Source: a virus (Duplodnaviria; Heunggongvirae; Uroviricota; Caudoviricetes). Taken from it: a stretch of 10,681 bases of DNA. Location of the stretch: positions 1 to 10,681 of IMG/VR virus record IMGVR_UViG_2713896775_000011; one strand, 5' to 3'. The notes beneath the pieces were generated by a model that had not been told where the DNA came from, made no database searches, and saw only the letters and a program-made list of their open reading frames with translations. The translations under genes and the position numbers were made by a program. Every line of letters starts with the position of its first letter. The first letter of the stretch is position 1. Positions 1-10,681 of this stretch are shown one piece after another.

Positions 1-258
1 GGAGGCGTACCGAATATTGGCGATATCCGCATCACTGGTGGAGATGGAGGCGACGGTCAGTCCGGAAATATCGGCGTCAGCGGTGAAGGCGGAACATCGC
101 ACTGGGGCGGCGGTGGACGCGCAGGCGCTGGCGGTGGTGTTAGTGGTAAGGCATATGGTTCAGGTGGCGGTGGCGCATACGATGCCGGTTATAGCGGAAC
201 CAGTATGACAGGCGGGAAAGGTGCTGCTGGGATTTGTATTATCGAGGAGTTTGCATAA
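1..258 (+). CDS. Tail fibre protein, C-terminal fragment (5' end lies outside the window); glycine-rich distal region
   Basis: Frame 1 is open from the window edge to TAA at 256-258 and translates to GGVPNIGDIRITGGDGGDGQSGNIGVSGEGG...GKGAAGICIIEEFA. The stop overlaps the ATG of the downstream assembly gene (TAATG), the usual fibre/chaperone arrangement. Assignment rests on position and composition, not on a recognised motif. Confidence 0.5.
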   Translation, partial: GGVPNIGDIRITGGDGGDGQSGNIGVSGEGGTSHWGGGGRAGAGGGVSGKAYGSGGGGAYDAGYSGTSMTGGKGAAGICIIEEFA

Positions 259-668
259 TGAATGCGTCATATGCAGTTATTGAAAATGGGATGCTTGTGA
301 ATGTCATTGTCTGGGATGGCGAGGATGAATTCACAGTGCCGGATAATCAGCAGCTCATTAATATTTCTGATATCAGTGAGCATCCCGGAATCGGCTGGGC
401 GTATTCAGACGGGGGATTTACTGCGCCGCTCCCTCCGGAACGTTCTCATGATGAACTGGTAGCTGACGCTGAACAGAAAAAACAGTCGCTGATAGACGCA
501 GCAATGACCAATATCAGCGTGATTCAGTTAAAGCTGCAGGCCGGGCGCAAACTGACGCAAGAAGAAACTACCCGACTTAACGTTGTGCTGGATTATATCG
601 ACGCTGTGACGGCAACAGATACCAGCACCGCACCGGATGTCATCTGGCCTGAACTGCCGGAGGAGTAG
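258..668 (+). CDS. Tail fibre assembly protein (Tfa / P2 gpG-like chaperone), 136 aa
   Basis: ATG at 258-260 (the ORF track start at 234 is a TTG). The C-terminal half (...AEQKKQSLIDAA...TATDTSTAPDVIWPELPEE) matches the conserved Tfa C-terminal domain ending in a (D/S)TS-APD-I-WP motif; the N-terminal ~60 aa is divergent. Stop TAG at 666-668. Confidence 0.8.
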   Translation: MNASYAVIENGMLVNVIVWDGEDEFTVPDNQQLINISDISEHPGIGWAYSDGGFTAPLPPERSHDELVADAEQKKQSLIDAAMTNISVIQLKLQAGRKLTQEETTRLNVVLDYIDAVTATDTSTAPDVIWPELPEE

Positions 669-795
669 GCCATTCAATATCTGGCGCACTGGAGGTATCA
701 ACCAGCTCCAGTGCATCCAGATAATCCAGCCACAGATTAAACTGCACTTTTCATCATCAGGCAATCGTCCAGGCGCGAGCCTGGATGCTGGCATC
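640..795 (-). pseudogene. Remnant of a second, inverted tail fibre assembly gene (tfa'), 5'-truncated and frameshifted
   Basis: Minus strand 750->640 translates KVQFNLWLDYLDALELVDTSSAPDIEWPTPPAVQAR*, the canonical Tfa C-terminus. It is preceded by three in-frame TGA codons (759-751); an upstream Tfa-like segment (...LPDDEK) sits in another frame, implying a frameshift near 751-757. Its 3' end overlaps the + strand tfa by about 29 bp, convergently. Confidence 0.45.
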
Positions 796-827
796 TCTGC
801 CCAATTTAAATTTGAGAGGTAATTATG

Positions 828-1303
828 TTAACAGTTAATCCACCAGTATGTGCCGGGTGCCTGCGGGTAAGTGGCGGCGGCAACCTCGTGAACCATCCCC
901 CAATCCAGAGCTGTGGAGGCATTGGCTATGGTGGCGGCGGAGATAACCTCCTTCCACTCATTGCGGCTCTTACTGAGCTCAATCTGACTCTCCAAAATAT
1001 CGACAAAACGCTCCAGGTCATTATTGAGACACGCGCTCCACTCACTGACGCGTGAGTGATCCACGCTTGGGCCCATCAAGCCCCAGTGAAAAGGATGCAG
1101 TAAGAACCGACTCCCAGGATTCGCCTTACGTTCAGACCCTGCAAGAAAAATGATATTAGCGACTGATTCAACATTGCTAAGGTTATGGGTCTTTACTGGG
1201 ATTGGTAGGGCCTTTAGAAAGTGATAAGCAGTAAAACCTGCAACGAGGTCACCGCCCGGACTGGAAATGTAAATGTTTAACTCAGTCGCCCCCTGATTGA
1301 TAG
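828..1303 (-). pseudogene. ClpP-fold (Clp protease-like) serine peptidase, 5'-truncated fragment
   Basis: The minus-strand ORF contains NIYISSPGGDLVAGFTAYHF...VESVANIIFLAGSERKANPGSRFLLHPF...ALDWGMVHEV, which aligns with the ClpP core (YINSPGG...AG...Y...GQAASMGAFLLTAG...SRVMIHQP...EYGLVD), including the Ser and His positions. Only about 25 residues precede the SPGG motif, against roughly 90 in ClpP. The only in-frame start is a GTG at 1358 with no SD, lying inside the invertase remnant. Confidence 0.55.
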
Positions 1304-1543
1304 CTCCGAGAACTGATTGTTGAACGAACAAAAGCTGGCCTGGAAGCTGCTCGCGCACAGGGACGAATTGGTGGACGACGTCCCAAACTTACACCAGAAC
1401 AATGGGCGCAGACGGGTAGGTTAATAGCGGCAGGGGAATCGCGCCGGAGGGTTGCCATAATTTATGATGTTGGGATATCTACGCTTTACAAAAAATTCCC
1501 AGCGACCAGAGATAAGAATTCCGGCACGCATGGCCGGTTATAA
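1304..1543 (+). pseudogene. Serine-recombinase DNA invertase (Pin/Gin/Hin family), C-terminal remnant only; catalytic domain absent
   Basis: Frame 2 from 1304 (directly after TAG 1301-1303) to TAA 1541-1543 reads LRELIVERTKAGLEAARAQGRIGGRRPKLTPEQWAQTGRLIAAGESRRRVAIIYDVGISTLYKKFPATRDKNSGTHGRL. This closely matches the C-terminal hinge and HTH domain of Gin/Pin as I remember them. There is no start codon, and no frame upstream carries the N-terminal catalytic domain. Confidence 0.85.
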
Positions 1544-1628
1544 CCGTGCTGGCCGTGTGTATCGAGTACGGTCACTTTTAACGGTGCTGTAGCACGGTCA
1601 GTTATGGTGGTGTATTACGGAAGACGAA

Positions 1629-1650
1629 GCGGGCAATGGCCCGCTTTTCT
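1629..1650 (+). terminator. Rho-independent terminator-like hairpin (gcgggc-aatg-gcccgc followed by TTTTCTT)
   Basis: Perfect 6-bp GC-rich stem at 1629-1634 / 1639-1644 followed by a T-tract on the + strand. It lies just downstream of the invertase remnant and abuts the stop codon of U. Confidence 0.4.
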
Positions 1651-2099
1651 TATATCGAAAGGTTGGTTTTCACCAGAGAGAAGAGATCGTCGGTGGTGGT
1701 TTCAGCCAGCTTTTCCCGTATGTCCTCGCTTACCCGTTTCAGGTTGAGCGTGAAATCAATTTTCTTTGCCTTCCCGTCCTTAAAAAACTCCGTCCGGTTT
1801 TGCGTGATCTGCTCAATTACATACATGCCGTAGATCCTGCCCGTGCCTTCTATCAGGGGCCACGGGCGCCCGGAAAAAGCCATAGTTTCCAGCATGACAA
1901 GCGACACATCACCGCCGCTTATTTCGGGGTACAGCGTGCCGCTGAGTACGAACGGTTCTTCATCTGCGCCGATGAACTGATAGCGCGGGGATTTCCCCAC
2001 GCGATCGTTTTTGACGTGCCGCCAGGAGTTGGTTTTATTCGCACTCTGGTAAGGTGTGGTTTGCAGTGAAAAGGGGAACATCCCCAGAATCATCATCAT
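1650..2099 (-). CDS. U: Phage tail protein gpU (P2 U-like), 149 aa
   Basis: MMMILGMFPFSLQTTPYQ...SWRH...FIGADEEPFVLSGTLYPEISGG...RPWPLIEGTGRIYGMYVI resembles P2 gpU as recalled. It sits immediately downstream of the tape measure gene with a 9-nt gap and an AAGG SD. Confidence 0.85.
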   Translation of the reverse strand: MMMILGMFPFSLQTTPYQSANKTNSWRHVKNDRVGKSPRYQFIGADEEPFVLSGTLYPEISGGDVSLVMLETMAFSGRPWPLIEGTGRIYGMYVIEQITQNRTEFFKDGKAKKIDFTLNLKRVSEDIREKLAETTTDDLFSLVKTNLSI

Positions 2100-2108
2100 G
2101 ATATTGCC

Positions 2109-5054
2109 TTAGACGTGATCGGTCAGTTGGGAGCGCTTGCGCCGGTCGGCCTGTTGCTTCGCTAACGCAAGTTCTTCGCGCACGCGCCTGATAATGGTTT
2201 CTTCATCCAGTTTCTGGCCGCTAAAGTCGAAGTTAAGGTTATATACATCGCCACCCGGAGCAGGCATCAGCGCAGCGACGGAAGCCGCAGACGGAGACGC
2301 CGAAACAGGCATCCGTGCGGCGGGCTTCTCAACCTGCCAAGGCGTAACGGAAGCGATCAGCGATCCGGCCTGCTGCGTCACCCAATCCGTAAGGGATGGT
2401 AGCTGGCGCTGCGCCTGCTTAAGCGGTTCCGAATATCCGCCCCGGATCGGGATATAGGGCTGCTTATTCTTGAAGACGATTTCGCCGGGCCCGTCTTTCT
2501 TCTCCGTGGTATTGGTGGCGATCTTGTCCAGGCTGCTGCTCATCTTCGGCACGATGTTGGCCGGGCCCTTGAGCGAGTTAATTAAGCTTTCCTGCTTTTT
2601 CTGCTGGTCAATGGCCTGCTGTTGCTTCTGGTTGGTTTTCTTCTGCTGATCGTCTTTCGGCGACCAGTTCCAACCCTTTTTAACCATTTTCTTTTGCTGC
2701 GGATCCCACTCCCAGACAACAGGGTCTTTGTGCATACTTTCCGCAGCTTGCTGCGCTGCTTTTGTTGCGTCGGGGATGGCGCCGAGTTTCTCAAGTATCC
2801 ATCCAATCCCGTTAGCGACGGCTTGAATAGGTAGCGTCAGCGCGCTAATTGCGGCCCCTACAACCTTGCCGAACGTTTCCCCGGCACTGGTGCAGGATGC
2901 CAGCGCTTCACTGGAAAACTGGATCGGTTCCAGCAGTTTGGTAAACCATTCCCAGACCCCACTGATCGCGTTGCCGATACTGTCAAAAATCGGGGCCAGT
3001 GGTGCAAATACGGCGTTAAATGCCTGCGTGATTGGTTGAAGGCCAGTCATCAGGCCGGTAAAGAAGCCGCTGAAAAACGCCTGTATGGGTTGCCAGAATT
3101 TAATGACGGCCACTGCTGCCGCAGCAAAGAGCGCAATCAGCCCCCAGACGGGCGCAGAAATACCAGCCAGTAGAGTAATAAGCGGGCCGAATACCATGCG
3201 ACCGGCGCTTAATAATGCCTGCATAGGCGAGCCAGCAAGCCACTGGAACGCACCACCCAGGCGCATTACTCCGCCAGTCAGCCGCGCTATTCCTCCTTCC
3301 CCAGCCAGCGTGGTGAAGCTGAGGCGAACAAGTGCCATCGGGCCCAGCACTGCGCCGATGGACAGCATCAGGCCACCCACGACAACCAGCAACGCGCCTA
3401 TGGCTGCGGTGACTTTCATGATTGAACCAACCAGCGCCGGGTTTGCCTCAACCCAACGCCGGACGCTGCCAACCACCTTACTGACGGTAAGCATGATATC
3501 CATCAGCGGTTCGCGGAGCGTTTCCCCTGCTGAACTGAATGCGTTAACCGCGCCGGTTTTGGTCAGTTGCCACTGAGCAGAAAGGGAGGCTTTATTGATA
3601 TCGGATTCCCGATTCATGGAACCTTTAGCGGCAGCACCCTGCGTCAGTTCGATCTGGCGCCGAAGTTCGGGCAGGTTGTTCGCAAGTTTCTGTGCATCAT
3701 CCCCGAACTCTTTACCGAAAATCTGGGTAAGGTTGGCTACCTGCTTATCTGGTGCAAGTTTTTTGGACGCTTCCAGCACTGAAATGATCGTGCCCATCGC
3801 GTCCACTGACATGCTTTTCTGGACTTTCTCAGCATTGACGCCGATCTCATCCAGAGCACCCAAAAATTTATCGCTTTGTACTGTGGCGATCGACAGTTCA
3901 CGCACCATTGCATTGGTGGCGCTGGCTGCAACTTCGGCAGGTGATCCAAGCGTCAGAAAGGTGGAGCCCAGCGCGGCGGCTTGCTTGTAATCCAGTTGGC
4001 TGGCAAGCCCGCCAACGCGCTGGAGCACGTCGATAATATCGGAGCCTTTCGACTTCGCGTTATCGTCCAGGTAGTTTATGGCGTCGCCCAACTGTTCAAT
4101 ATTCTGGGTAGGGATTTTATACAGCCCGGCAATCTTACCGAGACTTTCAGAAAGCTGATCGGCGGGCAGTTCAAAGGCTACCGAAGCCTTTGCCGCCATG
4201 CTGGCAAAAGCCAGCAGATCGGCTTTTTGCTTTTGCCACGGATCATTGCTGTTTGCGACGCCCATACGCGCGCCACCTTCGACCAGTGCGGCATAGTCAA
4301 CAGCACCGTTTGCCATTGGCAGCTTTTCGCTGGCATCCATGATCGCCCGCTGCATTTCTTCATATTGCGGGGTGCGGTTGCCGCTGTCGTCACGCAAGCC
4401 GTTTACCTGTTTGGCTACGCCCTTCATTGCGTCTTCAAGGCTGCTGTAGGATTTAACCGCAGCGGCGACAGGTGCTAGGGTTGCCGCCCCTACTGCGGCG
4501 GTTTTCATCCCCCCGCTCATCATCTTTTCGCCGGTTTCTTTGGCGCGGCTGTAACGGGCCTGCGCCTGGTTAACAGCGTCAAGCCGTCGCTGCTGTTCGG
4601 CAAGCTGGCGGTTGTATTGCGCGGTGCGCTGGTTGATCTGTTCCGTCGCCCGGCTGGCGCTGCTGATCGCAATGCCTTCGCTGTAGAAGCTGGCCCGCAA
4701 CTGGTTAAGCTGCGTCTGCTCGCCTTTCTGCTGCTGGGTTAACTGGCGAATGGCTGCACGTTGCTGATTGAGGGCGGCAACCTGTTCGGCGCTGCGCTGG
4801 CGTAACGGGCCATAGGCCGCCGCCATTTGCCGGGCCTGTTCTTTCGCCTGGGCCAGTTGTTCGGTGGTTTTTTTATTGGCTGCGGTGAGGCGGTCAAAGC
4901 TGGTTGCCTGACGCTCAAGCCCTTTAATGCTGGTTTTAGTCTGGTTGATTTGAGACGCCAACGCGGCGGCACTCTGGCGCGCCGCGTTGACAGGGCGGGA
5001 CATATTATTCAGGGCGCTGAATGCCACCCTGATATTTAAATTGCGGTCTGCCAT
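2109..5054 (-). CDS. T: Tail tape measure protein (P2 gpT-like), 981 aa
   Basis: Long ORF in the T position between E/E' and U. It has a coiled-coil, Q/A-rich N-terminus, a central hydrophobic helix-rich segment and a K/Q-rich C-terminal part. ATG at 5052-5054 is immediately preceded by the E' stop; a GGAG-type SD lies upstream. Confidence 0.9.
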   Translation of the reverse strand: MADRNLNIRVAFSALNNMSRPVNAARQSAAALASQINQTKTSIKGLERQATSFDRLTAANKKTTEQLAQAKEQARQMAAAYGPLRQRSAEQVAALNQQRAAIRQLTQQQKGEQTQLNQLRASFYSEGIAISSASRATEQINQRTAQYNRQLAEQQRRLDAVNQAQARYSRAKETGEKMMSGGMKTAAVGAATLAPVAAAVKSYSSLEDAMKGVAKQVNGLRDDSGNRTPQYEEMQRAIMDASEKLPMANGAVDYAALVEGGARMGVANSNDPWQKQKADLLAFASMAAKASVAFELPADQLSESLGKIAGLYKIPTQNIEQLGDAINYLDDNAKSKGSDIIDVLQRVGGLASQLDYKQAAALGSTFLTLGSPAEVAASATNAMVRELSIATVQSDKFLGALDEIGVNAEKVQKSMSVDAMGTIISVLEASKKLAPDKQVANLTQIFGKEFGDDAQKLANNLPELRRQIELTQGAAAKGSMNRESDINKASLSAQWQLTKTGAVNAFSSAGETLREPLMDIMLTVSKVVGSVRRWVEANPALVGSIMKVTAAIGALLVVVGGLMLSIGAVLGPMALVRLSFTTLAGEGGIARLTGGVMRLGGAFQWLAGSPMQALLSAGRMVFGPLITLLAGISAPVWGLIALFAAAAVAVIKFWQPIQAFFSGFFTGLMTGLQPITQAFNAVFAPLAPIFDSIGNAISGVWEWFTKLLEPIQFSSEALASCTSAGETFGKVVGAAISALTLPIQAVANGIGWILEKLGAIPDATKAAQQAAESMHKDPVVWEWDPQQKKMVKKGWNWSPKDDQQKKTNQKQQQAIDQQKKQESLINSLKGPANIVPKMSSSLDKIATNTTEKKDGPGEIVFKNKQPYIPIRGGYSEPLKQAQRQLPSLTDWVTQQAGSLIASVTPWQVEKPAARMPVSASPSAASVAALMPAPGGDVYNLNFDFSGQKLDEETIIRRVREELALAKQQADRRKRSQLTDHV

Positions 5055-5515
5055 TTAGTGATCTCCACCACTGCGCGCAGCCGCCTGATCACGCCATAAC
5101 AGTATTTCCTGTACCGTCATGGCGTCCATCTCTACCGGCCGCCAGTGGAATATGACGGCGATATCTGCCATCAGGTCTTCTATGCGTTCGCAGGGGCATC
5201 GGATGATTCGTTGCCCGTATCCGTCGCGGTCAGATCCGAAGAGGGTTGCAAAAAATCAACCACCGCGTTGGCTAGCTGGCAAAAATCCCAGGTATCCATA
5301 CGGGCAATCTCATCGGCGGTTAGTGCCGGAGCGGTAACGCGGGGCAGCAGAATAACCAGCGCGTCATAGTTGGAAGTCAGCACGTCATAGGCTTTTAAGC
5401 CGCGCAGTGATCCAGCCTGTTTAAGCACGGAAGTGATCGCCACTTCGGTGATTTTGGTCTTACCGCGCGTAATAGGGGCGGTAAGAATAACGGTGTTTTC
5501 TTTGGTCTTGCTCAT
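5055..5515 (-). CDS. E': gpE+E' fusion product made by programmed -1 ribosomal frameshift (about 152 aa)
   Basis: The slippery heptamer TTTTTTG lies on the minus strand at + coordinates 5249-5255, inside E codons 88-89. The -1 frame from 5249 stays open for 64 codons (ATLFGSDRDGYGQRIIRCPCERIEDLMADIAVIFHWRPVEMDAMTVQEILLWRDQAAARSGGDH) and stops at TAA 5055-5057, directly abutting the T start codon. Confidence 0.7.
5180..5515 (-). CDS. E: Tail assembly chaperone gpE (P2 E-like), 110 aa
   Basis: MSKTKENTVILTAPITRGKTKITEVAIT...LRGL...ALVILLPRVTAPALTADE resembles P2 gpE. AGGAAA SD upstream; stop TAG at 5180-5182. Confidence 0.85.
   Translation of the reverse strand: MSKTKENTVILTAPITRGKTKITEVAITSVLKQAGSLRGLKAYDVLTSNYDALVILLPRVTAPALTADEIARMDTWDFCQLANAVVDFLQPSSDLTATDTGNESSDAPANA
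5249..5255 (-). promoter_or_regulatory. -1 programmed frameshift slippery site (TTTTTTG) for E/E'
   Basis: Heptamer read directly on the minus strand within E; its position near the E 3' end and the open -1 frame match the P2 E/E' and lambda G/GT paradigm. Confidence 0.65.
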
Positions 5516-5529
5516 GGTGCCGGGTTTCC

Positions 5530-6045
5530 TTATAGGCCGATGTTAGCGCGGTGTTTTTCCAGCACATCCACACCGGCAACTTTGTAGATCATGTTGAGCA
5601 CATCAACTTCGATAATCTCTTCGCCGTTGATGGTCAGCTTGTAATAGGTGTTTTTCAGGGTGTACTTATGCGAAGTGTCATCCCCGACTTTTGCCGAACC
5701 GGGATCCAGTTCAGTGAAGCGGCCACGCGTCTGGATTTCGCACGGTACAGCGTCGCCGGTTGCGTCGTCCTGATAGGAGCCAGCAAAACGTGTTTGCATC
5801 CCGTCCGCAGTGGTAACGCCCCATTTTTTCAGCAATCCGGCATCCAGACCGCCAAGCGTGATATCCATATCCAGGGCGCCAGCGTCGAAGCCAAGATCCA
5901 CCGCAACCGAACCCGGCATACCACCCGCCTGGTAGTCTTCGGTTTTTTTTGTGAGTTTGGCGGGGGTGATTTCCGGCACCATGCCGAAGTAGTTATCCCC
6001 GTCAAAGAACATATTGAAATATTTGAGTTTCTTAGGCAGTGCCAT
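5530..6045 (-). CDS. FII: Tail tube protein (P2 gpFII-like), 171 aa
   Basis: MALPKKLKYFNMFFDGDNYFGMVPEITPAKLTKK...RFAGSYQDD...LEKHRANIGL resembles P2 FII, including the ...HR.NIGL C-terminus. It lies 12 nt downstream of FI. Confidence 0.9.
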   Translation of the reverse strand: MALPKKLKYFNMFFDGDNYFGMVPEITPAKLTKKTEDYQAGGMPGSVAVDLGFDAGALDMDITLGGLDAGLLKKWGVTTADGMQTRFAGSYQDDATGDAVPCEIQTRGRFTELDPGSAKVGDDTSHKYTLKNTYYKLTINGEEIIEVDVLNMIYKVAGVDVLEKHRANIGL

Positions 6046-6057
6046 AAGCGCCCCCGG

Positions 6058-7251
6058 TTAGTTATTCACTGCGCTGGAAAACGTAGCGAAATATTCGTCG
6101 GTGAACTCCTGTACCAGGCTGAGATTTTCCAGCGGTGGAACAGGGGTGTAGTTGTACTTAATGGTCAGTTGACCATTGCGCAGGGTTTCCGAGGTATTCG
6201 GTTCCGGGTCATACCAGCAGCGGGCGCCCAGCAGCTTGCCAGCCGTCACATATGAGGTCAGCTTCTTATTGATGCCGTCCACAATGTCCTTAACCAGCGA
6301 CGGGGTAAGCGGTTTATCAACATAGGCGAAATGGGCTTCGGCGACGGTATCCGCAACGATCTGCGCGGTTCGGGTATAGCTTTCGAAGATATACGTTTCC
6401 GCGTCGCAGGTACGCGATCCCCAGATGCGGTAGCCGTCCTGCTTGATCAGCGTGGTAACGCCTGCTGCGTTCAGTTCGTCGGCGTCGGTATCGGTGCCCT
6501 GCAACGTGAAATAGATATCCCGATCCATCCCCAGCACGTTATTAACGGGCACGTTGGAAATGGTTTTATGCCAGCCCTGCGTTGCGTCGATTTTGGCGCG
6601 CATCCCAACAGCATGGGCACCCACGGGCACGGTGGCATTGGCCCCGGCGTTGGTGTCGTAGCAGATGAAATTAGGCCAGATAACCATCATTTCACGCTGG
6701 GAGAACTGTTCGCGGTATTCCTTCACTTCGGCGATTGTGTTGCAGCCGTTCGCAGCCACGTAAGCAAATGCGCGCAGCTTTTCGGCAATGACGCCGAGTT
6801 GTGCGGCTACCGCTTCCGTATCAAGCCCAGGAACAGCCAGTACACGCGGGCGCACGCCTACGCGCATTTCGGCAGACAGCAGCGCGTACATGCCGGTAAA
6901 GCGCCCGTTTGCATCGGTGCCGCCAATAACCAGTTGATCCTGTGTCTGTGCGGTACCGCCTTCTGGTGGAACAATTTTTGACGCATCGGCAACGCGGATC
7001 ACAATGGTTTGCGGGCTGGTCTGGTCTGAAATCGCTTTCAGGGTGGTAAACAGGGTGCCGGTTTTACCTGCCTTGCCCAGCATGTTAGCCACGCGGGTGA
7101 TCAGTACAGGGGTATCCAGCGGGAACGCTGTTTCGTCCGCATCATCAGCGGTGCAGACAACGCCGATCACCGCCGAATCAATGTCGGTGATCATCGTGCT
7201 AAGGTCGGTGGTTTCCGTGACGGTTACACCGTGATGGTAGTTAGTGGCCAT
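6058..7251 (-). CDS. FI: Contractile tail sheath protein (P2 gpFI-like), 397 aa
   Basis: MATNYHHGVTV...VIGVVCTADDAD...VPGLDTEAVAAQL...KLRAFAYVA...WHKT.SNV...YTPVPPLENL matches P2 FI (MSDYHHGVQV...) along its length as recalled. GAGG SD upstream of ATG 7249-7251. Confidence 0.9.
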   Translation of the reverse strand: MATNYHHGVTVTETTDLSTMITDIDSAVIGVVCTADDADETAFPLDTPVLITRVANMLGKAGKTGTLFTTLKAISDQTSPQTIVIRVADASKIVPPEGGTAQTQDQLVIGGTDANGRFTGMYALLSAEMRVGVRPRVLAVPGLDTEAVAAQLGVIAEKLRAFAYVAANGCNTIAEVKEYREQFSQREMMVIWPNFICYDTNAGANATVPVGAHAVGMRAKIDATQGWHKTISNVPVNNVLGMDRDIYFTLQGTDTDADELNAAGVTTLIKQDGYRIWGSRTCDAETYIFESYTRTAQIVADTVAEAHFAYVDKPLTPSLVKDIVDGINKKLTSYVTAGKLLGARCWYDPEPNTSETLRNGQLTIKYNYTPVPPLENLSLVQEFTDEYFATFSSAVNN

Positions 7252-7323
7252 GTATTTGCCTCGCCAGTTTAATGACTGCGAATATCATTGCGGCAATGGC
7301 AGGCCGATGCGATGAATAAGGGT

Positions 7324-7341
7324 TGTCAGCAACCTGCAACA
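7324..7341. promoter_or_regulatory. Ogr-type late-promoter activator site: dyad TGT-N12-ACA
   Basis: tgt(7324-7326)-cagcaacctgca-aca(7339-7341) matches the TGT-N12-ACA element of P2 late promoters. Its centre lies 81 bp from the FI ATG and 76 bp from the D ATG, between the two divergent genes. Confidence 0.4.
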
Positions 7342-7408
7342 ATGACGGGGCGTTGTTCATGCGCGCGCGCGTGGCGACGATGTACCCCATCATGATGAAG
7401 GGGTTGAT

Positions 7409-8527
7409 ATGGACACGACAGAAAACCGATATTCGCCGCGCCCGGCGTTCAGTATTGAAATTGAAGGTAATCAGCTTACGGCGCTGGATAACCGGCTGAT
7501 CTCCCTTTCCCTGACAGATAACCGGGGCTTTGAAGCGGACACGCTGGATCTGACTCTGGATGATGTAGACGGGCAGGTAGCATTACCATCACGCGGCGCA
7601 AAGATATCGGTGGCGCTGGGCTGGGATAATGATCCATTGGTTTTTAAGGGCGTCTATACGGTTGACGAGATCGGACACGCCGGCCCGCCTGACCAGCTAA
7701 CGATCAGTGCCAGAAGTGCAGATTTCCGCGATACCTTCAACGTGAAGAGGGAATATAGCTGGCACGATATTACCGTGGGGGATGTGGTCGCCAGCATTGC
7801 CAGCCGCTACGATCTGCGTGCGGGTGTCAGCGAAGAACTGGCGAAGATTGAGATAGACCACGCCGATCAGACGAGTGAATCAGATATCAGCTTCTTAACG
7901 CGCATGGCCGAAATGCTGGGCGCGGTGGCAACCATTAAAAACGGTATGCTTCTGTTTATCACGCCGGGCAAGGGAGTGACGCAAAGCGGCAAGCCGTTGC
8001 CGGTGATCGAGATCGTCAGGTCAAGCGGTGATAAACATCGGTTTAACGTAGCTGACCGCGACGCGTACACGGGCGTAACTGCATACTGGCTTGATCTCAA
8101 CTTTGGCAAAAAACCATCCACTACCGTGAAGAAAACCACCCGCAGACGACGAACCAGCCAGGCCAAAAAGAAAGAGCCCGCATCAAGCAAAAAAGAGGGT
8201 GATTATCTGGCCGGGGCCGAAGGTAACGTTTTTGTTATCCGTAAAACCTTCAAGACGGAAAAGGCGGCGAAGCGGGCCGCTGCGGCTAAGTGGCGGGAGT
8301 TGCAGCGTGGAGCGGCGACGTTCAGCATCACCCTGGCGCGTGGCCGCGCGGATTTGTACCCGGAACAGCCTGCCAGCGTCTACGGCTTTAAGTCCACGAT
8401 CGACAGTGGGAACTGGACGATAACGCGGTGCGTTCACGATATTGGCGGGGGAGGGTTTACCACATCGCTGGAACTGGAAGTAAAAATCGACGACTGGACA
8501 GCGGAGAGTGACGATTCAACGTCTTAA
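7409..8527 (+). CDS. D: Phage tail/late protein gpD (P2 D-like), 372 aa
   Basis: MDTTENRYSPRPAFSIEIEGNQLTALDNRLISLSLTDNRGFEADTLDLTLDD... is characteristic of the P2 gpD family. AAGGGG SD 5 nt upstream of the ATG. Confidence 0.9.
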   Translation: MDTTENRYSPRPAFSIEIEGNQLTALDNRLISLSLTDNRGFEADTLDLTLDDVDGQVALPSRGAKISVALGWDNDPLVFKGVYTVDEIGHAGPPDQLTISARSADFRDTFNVKREYSWHDITVGDVVASIASRYDLRAGVSEELAKIEIDHADQTSESDISFLTRMAEMLGAVATIKNGMLLFITPGKGVTQSGKPLPVIEIVRSSGDKHRFNVADRDAYTGVTAYWLDLNFGKKPSTTVKKTTRRRRTSQAKKKEPASSKKEGDYLAGAEGNVFVIRKTFKTEKAAKRAAAAKWRELQRGAATFSITLARGRADLYPEQPASVYGFKSTIDSGNWTITRCVHDIGGGGFTTSLELEVKIDDWTAESDDSTS

Positions 8528-8575
8528 GCGTTATACTTGCGTTGATATTAACCAGTCCTGAAAGGAGGCCCGCGT

Positions 8576-8818
8576 ATGGCAATGCGCTGTCCTCGCTGCC
8601 GTGCAATAGCAAAAACCAGAACCAGCGTTGAGCTGAGTTTGCTTGTACGGCGCAGCTATCACCAGTGTCAAAATATGTTGTGCGGGTACTGTTTCACCAG
8701 CATGACGGAAATAGACGGTTCACTAAATCAGACCCAGCCAGCGCCCGGCGCGATGGTGCCACAAGAAGCTTTTCCACGAAGTCACCACGGCGAAGATCAG
8801 TTATCGCTGGCATTATAA
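8576..8818 (+). CDS. ogr: Ogr/Delta-family zinc-finger late-gene transcriptional activator, 80 aa
   Basis: MAMRCPRCRAIAKTRTSVELSLLVRRSYHQCQNMLCGYCF has the Cys-x2-Cys...Cys-x4-Cys Ogr signature and resembles P2 Ogr (MFHCPLC...RYHQCQN.NC). Strong AAAGGAGG SD 7 nt upstream. Confidence 0.85.
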   Translation: MAMRCPRCRAIAKTRTSVELSLLVRRSYHQCQNMLCGYCFTSMTEIDGSLNQTQPAPGAMVPQEAFPRSHHGEDQLSLAL

Positions 8819-8820
8819 AA

Positions 8821-8850
8821 GCGGCCCCTAAATGGGGCCGTTATTTATTT
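8821..8850. terminator. Bidirectional rho-independent terminator shared by ogr (+) and the convergent membrane-protein gene (-)
   Basis: gcggcccc-taaa-tggggccg hairpin followed by TTATTTATTT on the + strand and by CTTTTA on the minus strand. The minus gene's stop codon (8845-8847) lies inside the T-tract. Confidence 0.6.
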
Positions 8851-9492
8851 CATGTTTATGGCTACAAACCTTGATCGTGTAAGGTTTTCACTTAAATATT
8901 GATCGCCACTATCCCCGGCCTTTTTGCCCCAGATATCACACGAAGATTCACCGCCCTGAAAAACGTAGCCTTTGGTTAAAATGTCGTTAGTCACATAAAT
9001 ATGATCGAATAAACCAGCCTTCCAAGCCCTGTTAGATTCCCCGTGATTGAAATAGCTGATGCATACGGACTGAACGGCACTTTTCGCCTGTAGTTCTTCT
9101 ATGCTGTCAAAATTGAATGCAACTACTAAGGCTTTGTTGTAAATGACTGGTTTAACTGTGAGATTCAGATCTCCGAGCGCCTTGGATAAGGCAAGGGGAA
9201 GTTGATTAGTCGCTTCTGAAAAGTCGATAGTGGTTGTTAATTGTTCTTTGGGTTTAGCCGCGGGTTGTGTTTGTTCTGTGTTTGTCACTGCTGGCTGGGG
9301 TTTATTTTCAGCAACAGCTTTCGGCGCGACTGGTGCAACCATTGAACCTATGATTGCTGCCAAGAGGCACACCCCGAAGTAGATAGCAGATGAGCGCTTT
9401 CGATTTGGCATAAAAACCCATTTGGGATTGATTAGCCCAACCCAAAAAGCGATCCCAGCAACAGCGGCGATAACGGTGATGATTGTTTCCAT
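8845..9492 (-). CDS. Hypothetical membrane-anchored protein, 215 aa (two predicted N-terminal TM helices, Pro/Gln-rich linker, globular C-terminal domain)
   Basis: ATG at 9490-9492 with a GGAGGG SD 7 nt upstream. Hydrophobic segments IITVIAAVAGIAFWVGLI and AIYFGVCLLAAIIGSMVAPVA. The DNA looks clearly AT-richer than the flanking tail genes and fieF (by eye). No family recognised. Confidence 0.6.
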   Translation of the reverse strand: METIITVIAAVAGIAFWVGLINPKWVFMPNRKRSSAIYFGVCLLAAIIGSMVAPVAPKAVAENKPQPAVTNTEQTQPAAKPKEQLTTTIDFSEATNQLPLALSKALGDLNLTVKPVIYNKALVVAFNFDSIEELQAKSAVQSVCISYFNHGESNRAWKAGLFDHIYVTNDILTKGYVFQGGESSCDIWGKKAGDSGDQYLSENLTRSRFVAINMK

Positions 9493-9670
9493 TGAGTACC
9501 CTCCGTATTAAGGCGGGTATTATTGTCGATGGTGCTCAAAAACGGAACAGCCAAGCGCGGTGCGCCTGGCTGCTTCTTTGTCGAAGTGTAGTCAAAATGT
9601 AGACGAAGTTTAGAATAAATCCTTTTATTCCATTATGTTACTGGCTGGATTTCTTCACCATCCCTGTCTT

Positions 9671-9698
9671 CCCCCACATGATGTGGGGGTTTTTTTTA
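9671..9698 (+). terminator. Rho-independent terminator (cccccacat-g-atgtggggg followed by T9) with no + strand gene upstream in the window
   Basis: Perfect 9-bp inverted repeat followed by nine T residues on the + strand, about 80 bp upstream of fieF. Confidence 0.5.
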
Positions 9699-9778
9699 TC
9701 CTCAATTTGCCTGCTGCTTAATGCATTGCAGATGATTTGCTTCCGTTATACTAGCGTCAGTTGATAGCGGGAGTATTT

Positions 9779-10681
9779 ATGAATCAATCTTATGGACGGC
9801 TGGTCAGTCGGGCGGCGATTGCTGCGACGGCGATGGCTTCGTTGCTATTGCTGATTAAAATTTTTGCATGGTGGTATACCGGGTCGGTGAGTATTCTCGC
9901 CGCGCTGGTGGATTCGCTGGTGGATATCGGCGCGTCGTTGACGAATTTACTGGTGGTGCGATATTCCCTGCAACCTGCCGACGATAATCACTCGTTTGGT
10001 CACGGTAAAGCAGAGTCCCTCGCGGCGCTGGCGCAAAGTATGTTTATCTCCGGTTCGGCACTATTCCTGTTTTTGACGGGTATTCAACATCTGATATCTC
10101 CAACACCGATGACAGATCCAGGCGTCGGGGTTATCGTGACAATTGTGGCGCTAATTTGTACGATTATCCTTGTCTCGTTTCAGCGTTGGGTGGTGCGGCG
10201 GACGCAAAGCCAGGCGGTGCGGGCTGATATGCTACATTACCAGTCTGATGTTATGATGAACGGCGCAATTCTGCTGGCGCTGGGGTTGTCCTGGTACGGC
10301 TGGCATCGCGCCGATGCTCTGTTTGCATTGGGAATCGGCATCTATATTTTATATAGCGCGTTACGCATGGGATATGAGGCGGTACAGTCATTACTGGATC
10401 GCGCATTGCCTGATGAGGAACGGCAAGAAATTATTGATATCGTGACTTCCTGGCCGGGTGTTAGCGGCGCTCACGATCTTCGCACGCGGCAGTCAGGGCC
10501 GACCCGCTTTATTCAGATTCATTTGGAAATGGAAGACTCTCTGCCTTTGGTTCAGGCACATATGGTGGCGGATCAGGTAGAGCAGGCTATTTTACGGCGT
10601 TTTCCGGGATCGGATGTAATTATCCATCAGGACCCCTGTTCCGTCGTACCCAGGGAGGGTAAACGGTCTATGCTTTCATAA
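9779..10681 (+). CDS. fieF: Cation-diffusion-facilitator ferrous-iron/zinc efflux transporter FieF (YiiP), 300 aa
   Basis: [56 protein letters not shown]... matches E. coli FieF as recalled, including the CDF signature and the HxxxD metal site. True start is ATG 9779 (GGGAG SD 5 nt upstream); the ORF track start at 9761 is a TTG. Confidence 0.95.

Follow-up and report, generated by a model that had tools for sequence, protein, structure and literature searches.

The window (the whole stretch of DNA that was analysed, 10,681 nucleotides) comprises late genes of a P2-like phage, a short non-coding stretch and a gene of the bacterial host (Table 1). The phage genes follow the order of the right end of P2, i.e., tail sheath, tube, tape measure, gpU, D, ogr and attachment site, according to Pfam matches and to the annotation of a related prophage in strain KMi029. 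Between ogr and the non-coding stretch, the DNA codes on the opposite strand for a protein (orf215) that combines two hydrophobic N-terminal transmembrane helices with a C-terminal domain of ∼120 aa. It has no Pfam or PADLOC match, and only weak similarity, to its N-terminal part, was detected in sequenced phages. The initial annotation described this membrane-protein gene as convergent, which holds with respect to ogr only; it is divergent from fieF, from which it is separated by the 286 bp of non-coding DNA (9493-9778) analysed here.

Table 1. Features identified at the right end of the prophage and in the adjoining host DNA (positions are those of the window)
Feature	Position	Strand	Basis
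D, P2 gpD-type late gene (tail/baseplate hub)	7409-8527	+	Pfam Phage_GPD (E 1.5e-18); 'phage late control D family protein' in KMi029
ogr, late-gene activator with zinc finger, last conserved P2-type gene before attP	8576-8818	+	Pfam Ogr_Delta (E 1.5e-13); annotation
Bidirectional terminator (hairpin) separating ogr from the convergent orf215	8820-8842		Scan of both strands; -19.4 kcal/mol, z -5.0
orf215, phage cargo gene (215 aa)	8845-9492	-	ORF and translation; PHROG 3403/3807 (unknown function)
Phage-derived P arm of attR (left arm of attP)	9493-9655		∼98.8% identity to the circular attP record up to 9700; missing from empty sites
Intrinsic terminator, 13-bp stem followed by CCGTTTTT	9546-9574	-	-25.3 kcal/mol, z -4.4
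Two direct arm-type integrase repeats (predicted), TGTAGTC (9587-9593) and TGTAGAC (9598-9604)	9587-9604	+	Spacing as in WPhi
att core, 45 bp, CACCATCCCTGTCTTCCCCCACATGATGTGGGGGTTTTTTTTATC, common to attP, attB, attL and attR	9656-9700	+	String comparison, blast break points, alignments
Intrinsic terminator (cpxP/CpxQ), duplicate at attR without upstream gene	9671-9697	+	Consensus scan and fold; same sequence after cpxP
Host B' flank, untouched upstream region of fieF	9701-9778	+	Identity to PM4-5
fieF, CDF cation-efflux transporter, host gene (ATG at 9779)	9779-10681	+	Annotation in KMi029, K-12-type and PM4-5

Two regions of the phage part differ among relatives. The interval from the ogr terminator to the P arm (8843-9571) is a variable cargo slot, filled here by orf215 and the hairpin that flanks it. 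Elsewhere, other cargo precedes this P arm (from ∼9572), namely a metallophosphoesterase gene in ABWA45 and a zinc-ribbon and 'TagO-like' pair with its own terminator in 730V1. Further upstream, the minus strand (528-1358) encodes a 176-aa ClpP-like protease (Pfam CLP_protease, E 3e-12) and an adjacent ORF of 88 aa. They lie between gpU and a tail-fibre assembly gene, in the accessory slot of the P2 Z/fun type, and gave no PADLOC match. At this slot, the otherwise collinear KMi029 prophage differs in its tail-fibre genes and carries a gene for a recombinase (invertase). The collinearity of the two prophages stops at position 1308, and a 257-bp piece of the window (483-739) is found inverted, with 85% identity, within positions 9900-11700 of the extracted KMi029 locus, which suggests either an exchange of tail-fibre modules or an invertible segment in the relative.

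A prophage-host junction between cpxP and fieF

We compared the stretch 8500-10000 with 5426 complete Escherichia coli genomes using Megablast. All genomes matched, but only from position 9656 onwards. The alignment to prophage-free E. coli thus locates the identity break point at 9656, in support of the prophage-host junction that the initial annotation had placed upstream of fieF. In K-12-type chromosomes, cpxP is the immediate upstream neighbour of fieF and has the same orientation, as stated there, and its stop codon precedes the shared sequence (the core, see below) by 25 nt. The region 8850-9655 has no counterpart in prophage-free chromosomes, so that the stretch from 8850 to fieF is not collinear with them.

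If there were no junction at all, the region would be collinear with ordinary E. coli, and the terminator in front of fieF would belong to an unannotated host gene. However, the full 8500-10000 stretch is contiguous in only 4 of the 5426 genomes, and the cpxP-fieF interval is uninterrupted in 4590 of them. In the prophage-free strains checked (K-12-type and PM4-5), cpxP is joined directly to the core. Nothing was found in favour of this reading; it is refuted, and we regard it as practically impossible. The interval is split in the remaining 836 genomes (15.4%), and among the matches listed for these split sites the alignment stops at the edge of the core.

The same junction is found in KMi029, as the right end of a P2-like prophage of ∼31 kb that is inserted between cpxP and fieF and has its integrase and C repressor genes at the cpxP side. 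This prophage region is collinear with positions 1308-10681 of the window and 99.1% identical to it. Positions 1-9655 of the window are the right end of a P2-like prophage, whose length of ∼31 kb is read from this relative. The left prophage end lies outside of the window, and attL was therefore read from the near-identical prophage of this other strain. On the right side, the host flank is the same as in the empty-site strain PM4-5, with 200 bp of identity rightwards of the core. ARAGORN found no tRNA or tmRNA in the window that could be the integration target, in agreement with the earlier remark that no tRNA-like sequence is visible.

A 45-bp core common to all four attachment sites

The phage attachment site was read from a 32,330-bp circular record of strain 2020N21-246-1, which was assembled with both integrated and circular forms. 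This record is an excised phage with its attP, and belongs to a close relative rather than to the strain of the window itself. It carries, in this order, D, ogr, orf215, the P arm, the core, the P' arm and int, and its orf215 protein is identical to that of the window.

The blast alignments break off sharply: the one with the circular phage record ends at 9700, and those with two empty sites begin at 9656, leaving an overlap of 45 bp. By exact string comparison, this core occurs once in the window, at attR, and we observed exact copies of all 45 bp in the attL of KMi029, the attB of PM4-5 and the circular attP. It consists of the terminator with 15 bp upstream and 3 bp downstream. Beyond the 45 bp, attL and attR share 0 bp of identity on either side, attL continuing into cpxP and attR into fieF. 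Leftwards of the core, the attL of KMi029 and attB are identical over 201 bp or more. The other prophage end, where the initial annotation had suggested looking for the same core, thus does carry it in KMi029.

The core had initially been sought in 9493-9670, with the terminator being a piece of host flank torn from cpxP by the insertion and cpxP being left without one. The break point between phage and host DNA, 9656, does lie within that interval. Yet attL keeps a full terminator behind cpxP, both the circular phage and WPhi include the terminator in their attP, phage identity extends to 9700, and 9493-9655 has no counterpart at attL or attB. This placement is refuted by the attL and attP sequences, and we consider it extremely improbable. 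The core includes the terminator, and what precedes it from 9493 on is the P arm of the phage. The term "displaced cpxP terminator" was right as to the identity of the hairpin, but the terminator has been duplicated rather than moved, an identical copy being retained at attL and another being present in attP.

We conclude, with a probability of about 0.96, that 9493-9778 is the attR of a P2-like (Peduovirus) prophage integrated into the WPhi attachment site in the intergenic region between cpxP and fieF.

The attB of K-12 differs from the core at a single base in the loop of the terminator (C instead of A at 9681). The A allele is found in the window, in attL, in attP and in the empty-site strain PM4-5. 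Because it also occurs in an empty site, we interpret the difference as a host polymorphism. Synthetic attR and attL queries with the C allele, designed for mapping the strand exchange, returned no 100% match and no informative lysogens; the A allele thus seems to be present at either prophage end in lysogens of this group.

Integrase, arm sites and a terminator beyond the core

The integrase gene, located outside of the window, was analysed in KMi029 and in the circular record. It encodes a protein of 326 aa with Int_N and Phage_integrase domains that is 67% identical to the integrase of WPhi. We observed two pairs of direct repeats that flank the core in the circular phage. In the P arm, the two repeats are 11 bp apart, the first one beginning 69 bp ahead of the core; in the P' arm, two TGTAGAC repeats with the same 11-bp spacing lie 83 bp past the core. 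WPhi has pairs of TGTGGAC at exactly the same four positions. The arm-type integrase sites of P2-type phages follow the consensus tgTGGaCa (PMC3448106), from which the repeats described here depart at one position. We infer that the integrase binds at these TGTAG(A/T)C repeats.

The P arm also contains a minus-strand intrinsic terminator; in WPhi, the corresponding position is occupied by a bidirectional one. In the circular phage, this hairpin lies downstream of int, across the core, and it probably ends the C-int operon there, being cut off from int upon integration. No terminator on the int strand was found at the attL of KMi029 between the int stop codon and cpxP (32801-32979 of the extracted KMi029 locus). 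The separation of int from a sequence downstream across attP is reminiscent of the sib/int retroregulation of lambda. The analogy is conceptual and purely positional.

The terminator in front of fieF and the small RNA CpxQ

The plus-strand terminator within the core has a stem of 8 bp (9671-9689) with 6 G-C pairs and a 3-nt loop, followed by eight T residues (9690-9697), and folds with -14.4 kcal/mol (z = -2.3 versus shuffles). It was rightly noticed as a strong terminator with no plus-strand gene in front: no co-oriented unit ends at it, and the nearest plus-strand end is that of ogr (8818), ∼850 bp upstream and followed by a terminator of its own. The same sequence follows cpxP in prophage-free strains and at the attL of KMi029. 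This hairpin lacks a gene because the core was duplicated on integration. The "orphan" terminator is thus a by-product copy of the core, and neither a displaced terminator nor the end of a separate gene.

The 3' untranslated region of cpxP is the source of CpxQ, an Hfq-dependent small RNA of ∼60 nt that is released by RNase E, covers nearly the whole of this region and shows higher conservation in enterobacteria than the cpxP gene (PMC9438474). Its 5' end is the seed for nhaB and cfa (PMC6755755). At attR, the 16 nt that precede the core in attB, TTTTCCTTGCCATAGA, are replaced by phage sequence, and this 5' seed is absent. CpxQ is said to measure 58 nt in the 2016 work of Chao and Vogel. The core covers the last 42 nt of this RNA of ∼58 nt; counting 58 nt back from the U-tail in the sequence as we presume it to be, we take the core to be nt 17-58 plus 3 nt. 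The assignment is based on the position, on the literature and on this presumed 58-nt sequence. CpxQ may have a second seed region as well. In terms of known features, the core reproduces the terminator hairpin of CpxQ, its U-tail and 14 nt ahead of the hairpin. The copy at attL is a complete native CpxQ linked to cpxP, whereas the copy at attR lacks the first 16 nt with the published seed, and has phage DNA upstream in place of cpxP and of the context for RNase E processing. A scan with Rfam at the gathering threshold gave no family at this site in the window and none at the intact K-12 locus either, and therefore cannot discriminate CpxQ here. The sole Rfam match in the fetched K-12 host region, ES036 (CssrF; 48.2 bits, minus strand, 4747-4788), is located in the pfkA-sbp intergenic region and is unrelated to the attR junction.

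The initial annotation had also considered that the hairpin might mark the end of a small RNA. This was correct insofar as the core is the 3' part of CpxQ, but the copy in the window is a 5'-truncated duplicate preceded by phage DNA. It could still end a short plus-strand chimeric RNA made at attR, with a phage-derived 5' end and the 3' module of CpxQ, which would be compatible with the attR reading. A sigma-70-like site (TAGTCA-16-TAGAAT, 9589-9616, 9 of 12 matches) lies ∼55-80 nt upstream and is also found in a related prophage, and the 42 nt kept in the core include a terminator/U-tail module typical of Hfq-dependent small RNAs. However, the number of promoter-like sites is within chance (4 found versus 1.8 ± 1.3 expected), and this one overlaps the arm-type integrase repeats, which accounts for its conservation. 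Moreover, the 5' seed of CpxQ is gone, and the 81-nt candidate, its terminator aside, folds like shuffled sequences (z -1.6). We thus consider such a transcript very unlikely, and retain the interpretation of the hairpin as a duplicated part of the core.

Relation to WPhi and to phages integrating at other RNA genes

The core matches the WPhi records AJ245959 and AY135739 at 100%. A query with 8500-9700 matched 62 phage records, the great majority via the core alone, and the identical 45 bp recur across P2-like phages of Escherichia, Salmonella, Yersinia and Enterobacter, with dozens of sequenced examples. According to our reading of the alignments, the attP of WPhi and the attB of K-12 share 47 bp, i.e., two bases beyond the 45. 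On the MG1655 chromosome, the integration site of WPhi maps to coordinate 4104392, and the core of WPhi is shared by L-413C (PMC3448106). In the genome of E. coli W, the prophage Wphi1 is listed at "cpxP-fieF" (PMC3032704). Prophages of ∼31 kb are also located between cpxP and fieF in an O157:H7 strain and in a lineage of Salmonella Infantis.

WPhi (Peduovirus Wphi) thus shares with the phage of the window the core, the host site, the gene order ogr-attP-int-C-cox, a P2-type tyrosine integrase, and arm-type repeats of the same number, orientation and spacing. The two differ in the repeat sequence (TGTGGAC in WPhi), in the rest of the arms, which is too diverged for megablast, and in the interval from ogr to the P arm, which contains a cargo of 0.7 kb (orf215 with its own terminator) in the window phage and a single bidirectional terminator in WPhi. 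The 67% identity of the integrases and the divergence of the arms outside of the repeats mark the window phage as a distinct lineage with the site specificity of WPhi.

Several temperate phages, P2-like and others, integrate at the 3' ends of genes for small, stable RNAs, such as tRNA-Ile for 186, ssrA for Fels-2 and SopEPhi, and cyaR and rybB for P2-type phages (PMC3448106; PMC3032704). In those cases, too, attP carries the 3' part of a conserved RNA, the host gene is regenerated, and a partial duplicate remains at the other end. Unlike these targets, the one described here is not a free-standing RNA gene but the 3' untranslated region of a protein-coding mRNA that doubles as a small RNA. The element, the tyrosine-recombinase mechanism that regenerates the target and the attB are all established knowledge. 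We found no paper in the searchable literature that equates the WPhi core with the 3' part of CpxQ; this overlap is a corollary of two known facts and no discovery.

Proposed integration and its consequences

We propose that a tyrosine integrase would insert the phage at the known WPhi site between cpxP and fieF. The attP holds a 45-bp copy of the host sequence that forms the cpxP terminator and the 3' two-thirds of CpxQ, and recombination within the core duplicates it. At attL, the host provides nt 1-16 of CpxQ and the core the rest, so that cpxP is preserved with its terminator and CpxQ is regenerated in full length. The duplicate at attR lies behind phage DNA and before fieF, where its terminator may have an insulating effect on fieF.

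For annotation, this means that the prophage boundary is 9656-9700 and that the gene-less terminator requires no new gene or small RNA. The site also illustrates the appeal of such targets to phages: the CpxQ region is among the most conserved sequences in the surroundings of cpxP, and a phage that brings along the 3' part of it gains a near-universal landing site in enterobacteria and leaves the host gene undamaged. Lysogeny might also perturb the Cpx envelope-stress circuit, either by a chimeric small RNA from attR or by constitutive, unterminated C-int transcription in the lysogen running antisense into CpxQ and cpxP at attL. Such read-through is conceivable because the int-strand terminator of the P arm would be left behind by integration. 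We think that an effect of this kind is very unlikely; if either of them did occur, Cpx regulation would be changed wherever the site is occupied, which is the case in ∼15% of E. coli genomes.

The site may also be occupied more than once. Some genomes, among them SZQ1, ET650 and 2020N21-246, have 3-4 copies of the core region, and in SZQ1 attL and attR are ∼62 kb apart. This suggests that P2-like prophages are integrated in tandem at one cpxP-fieF site.
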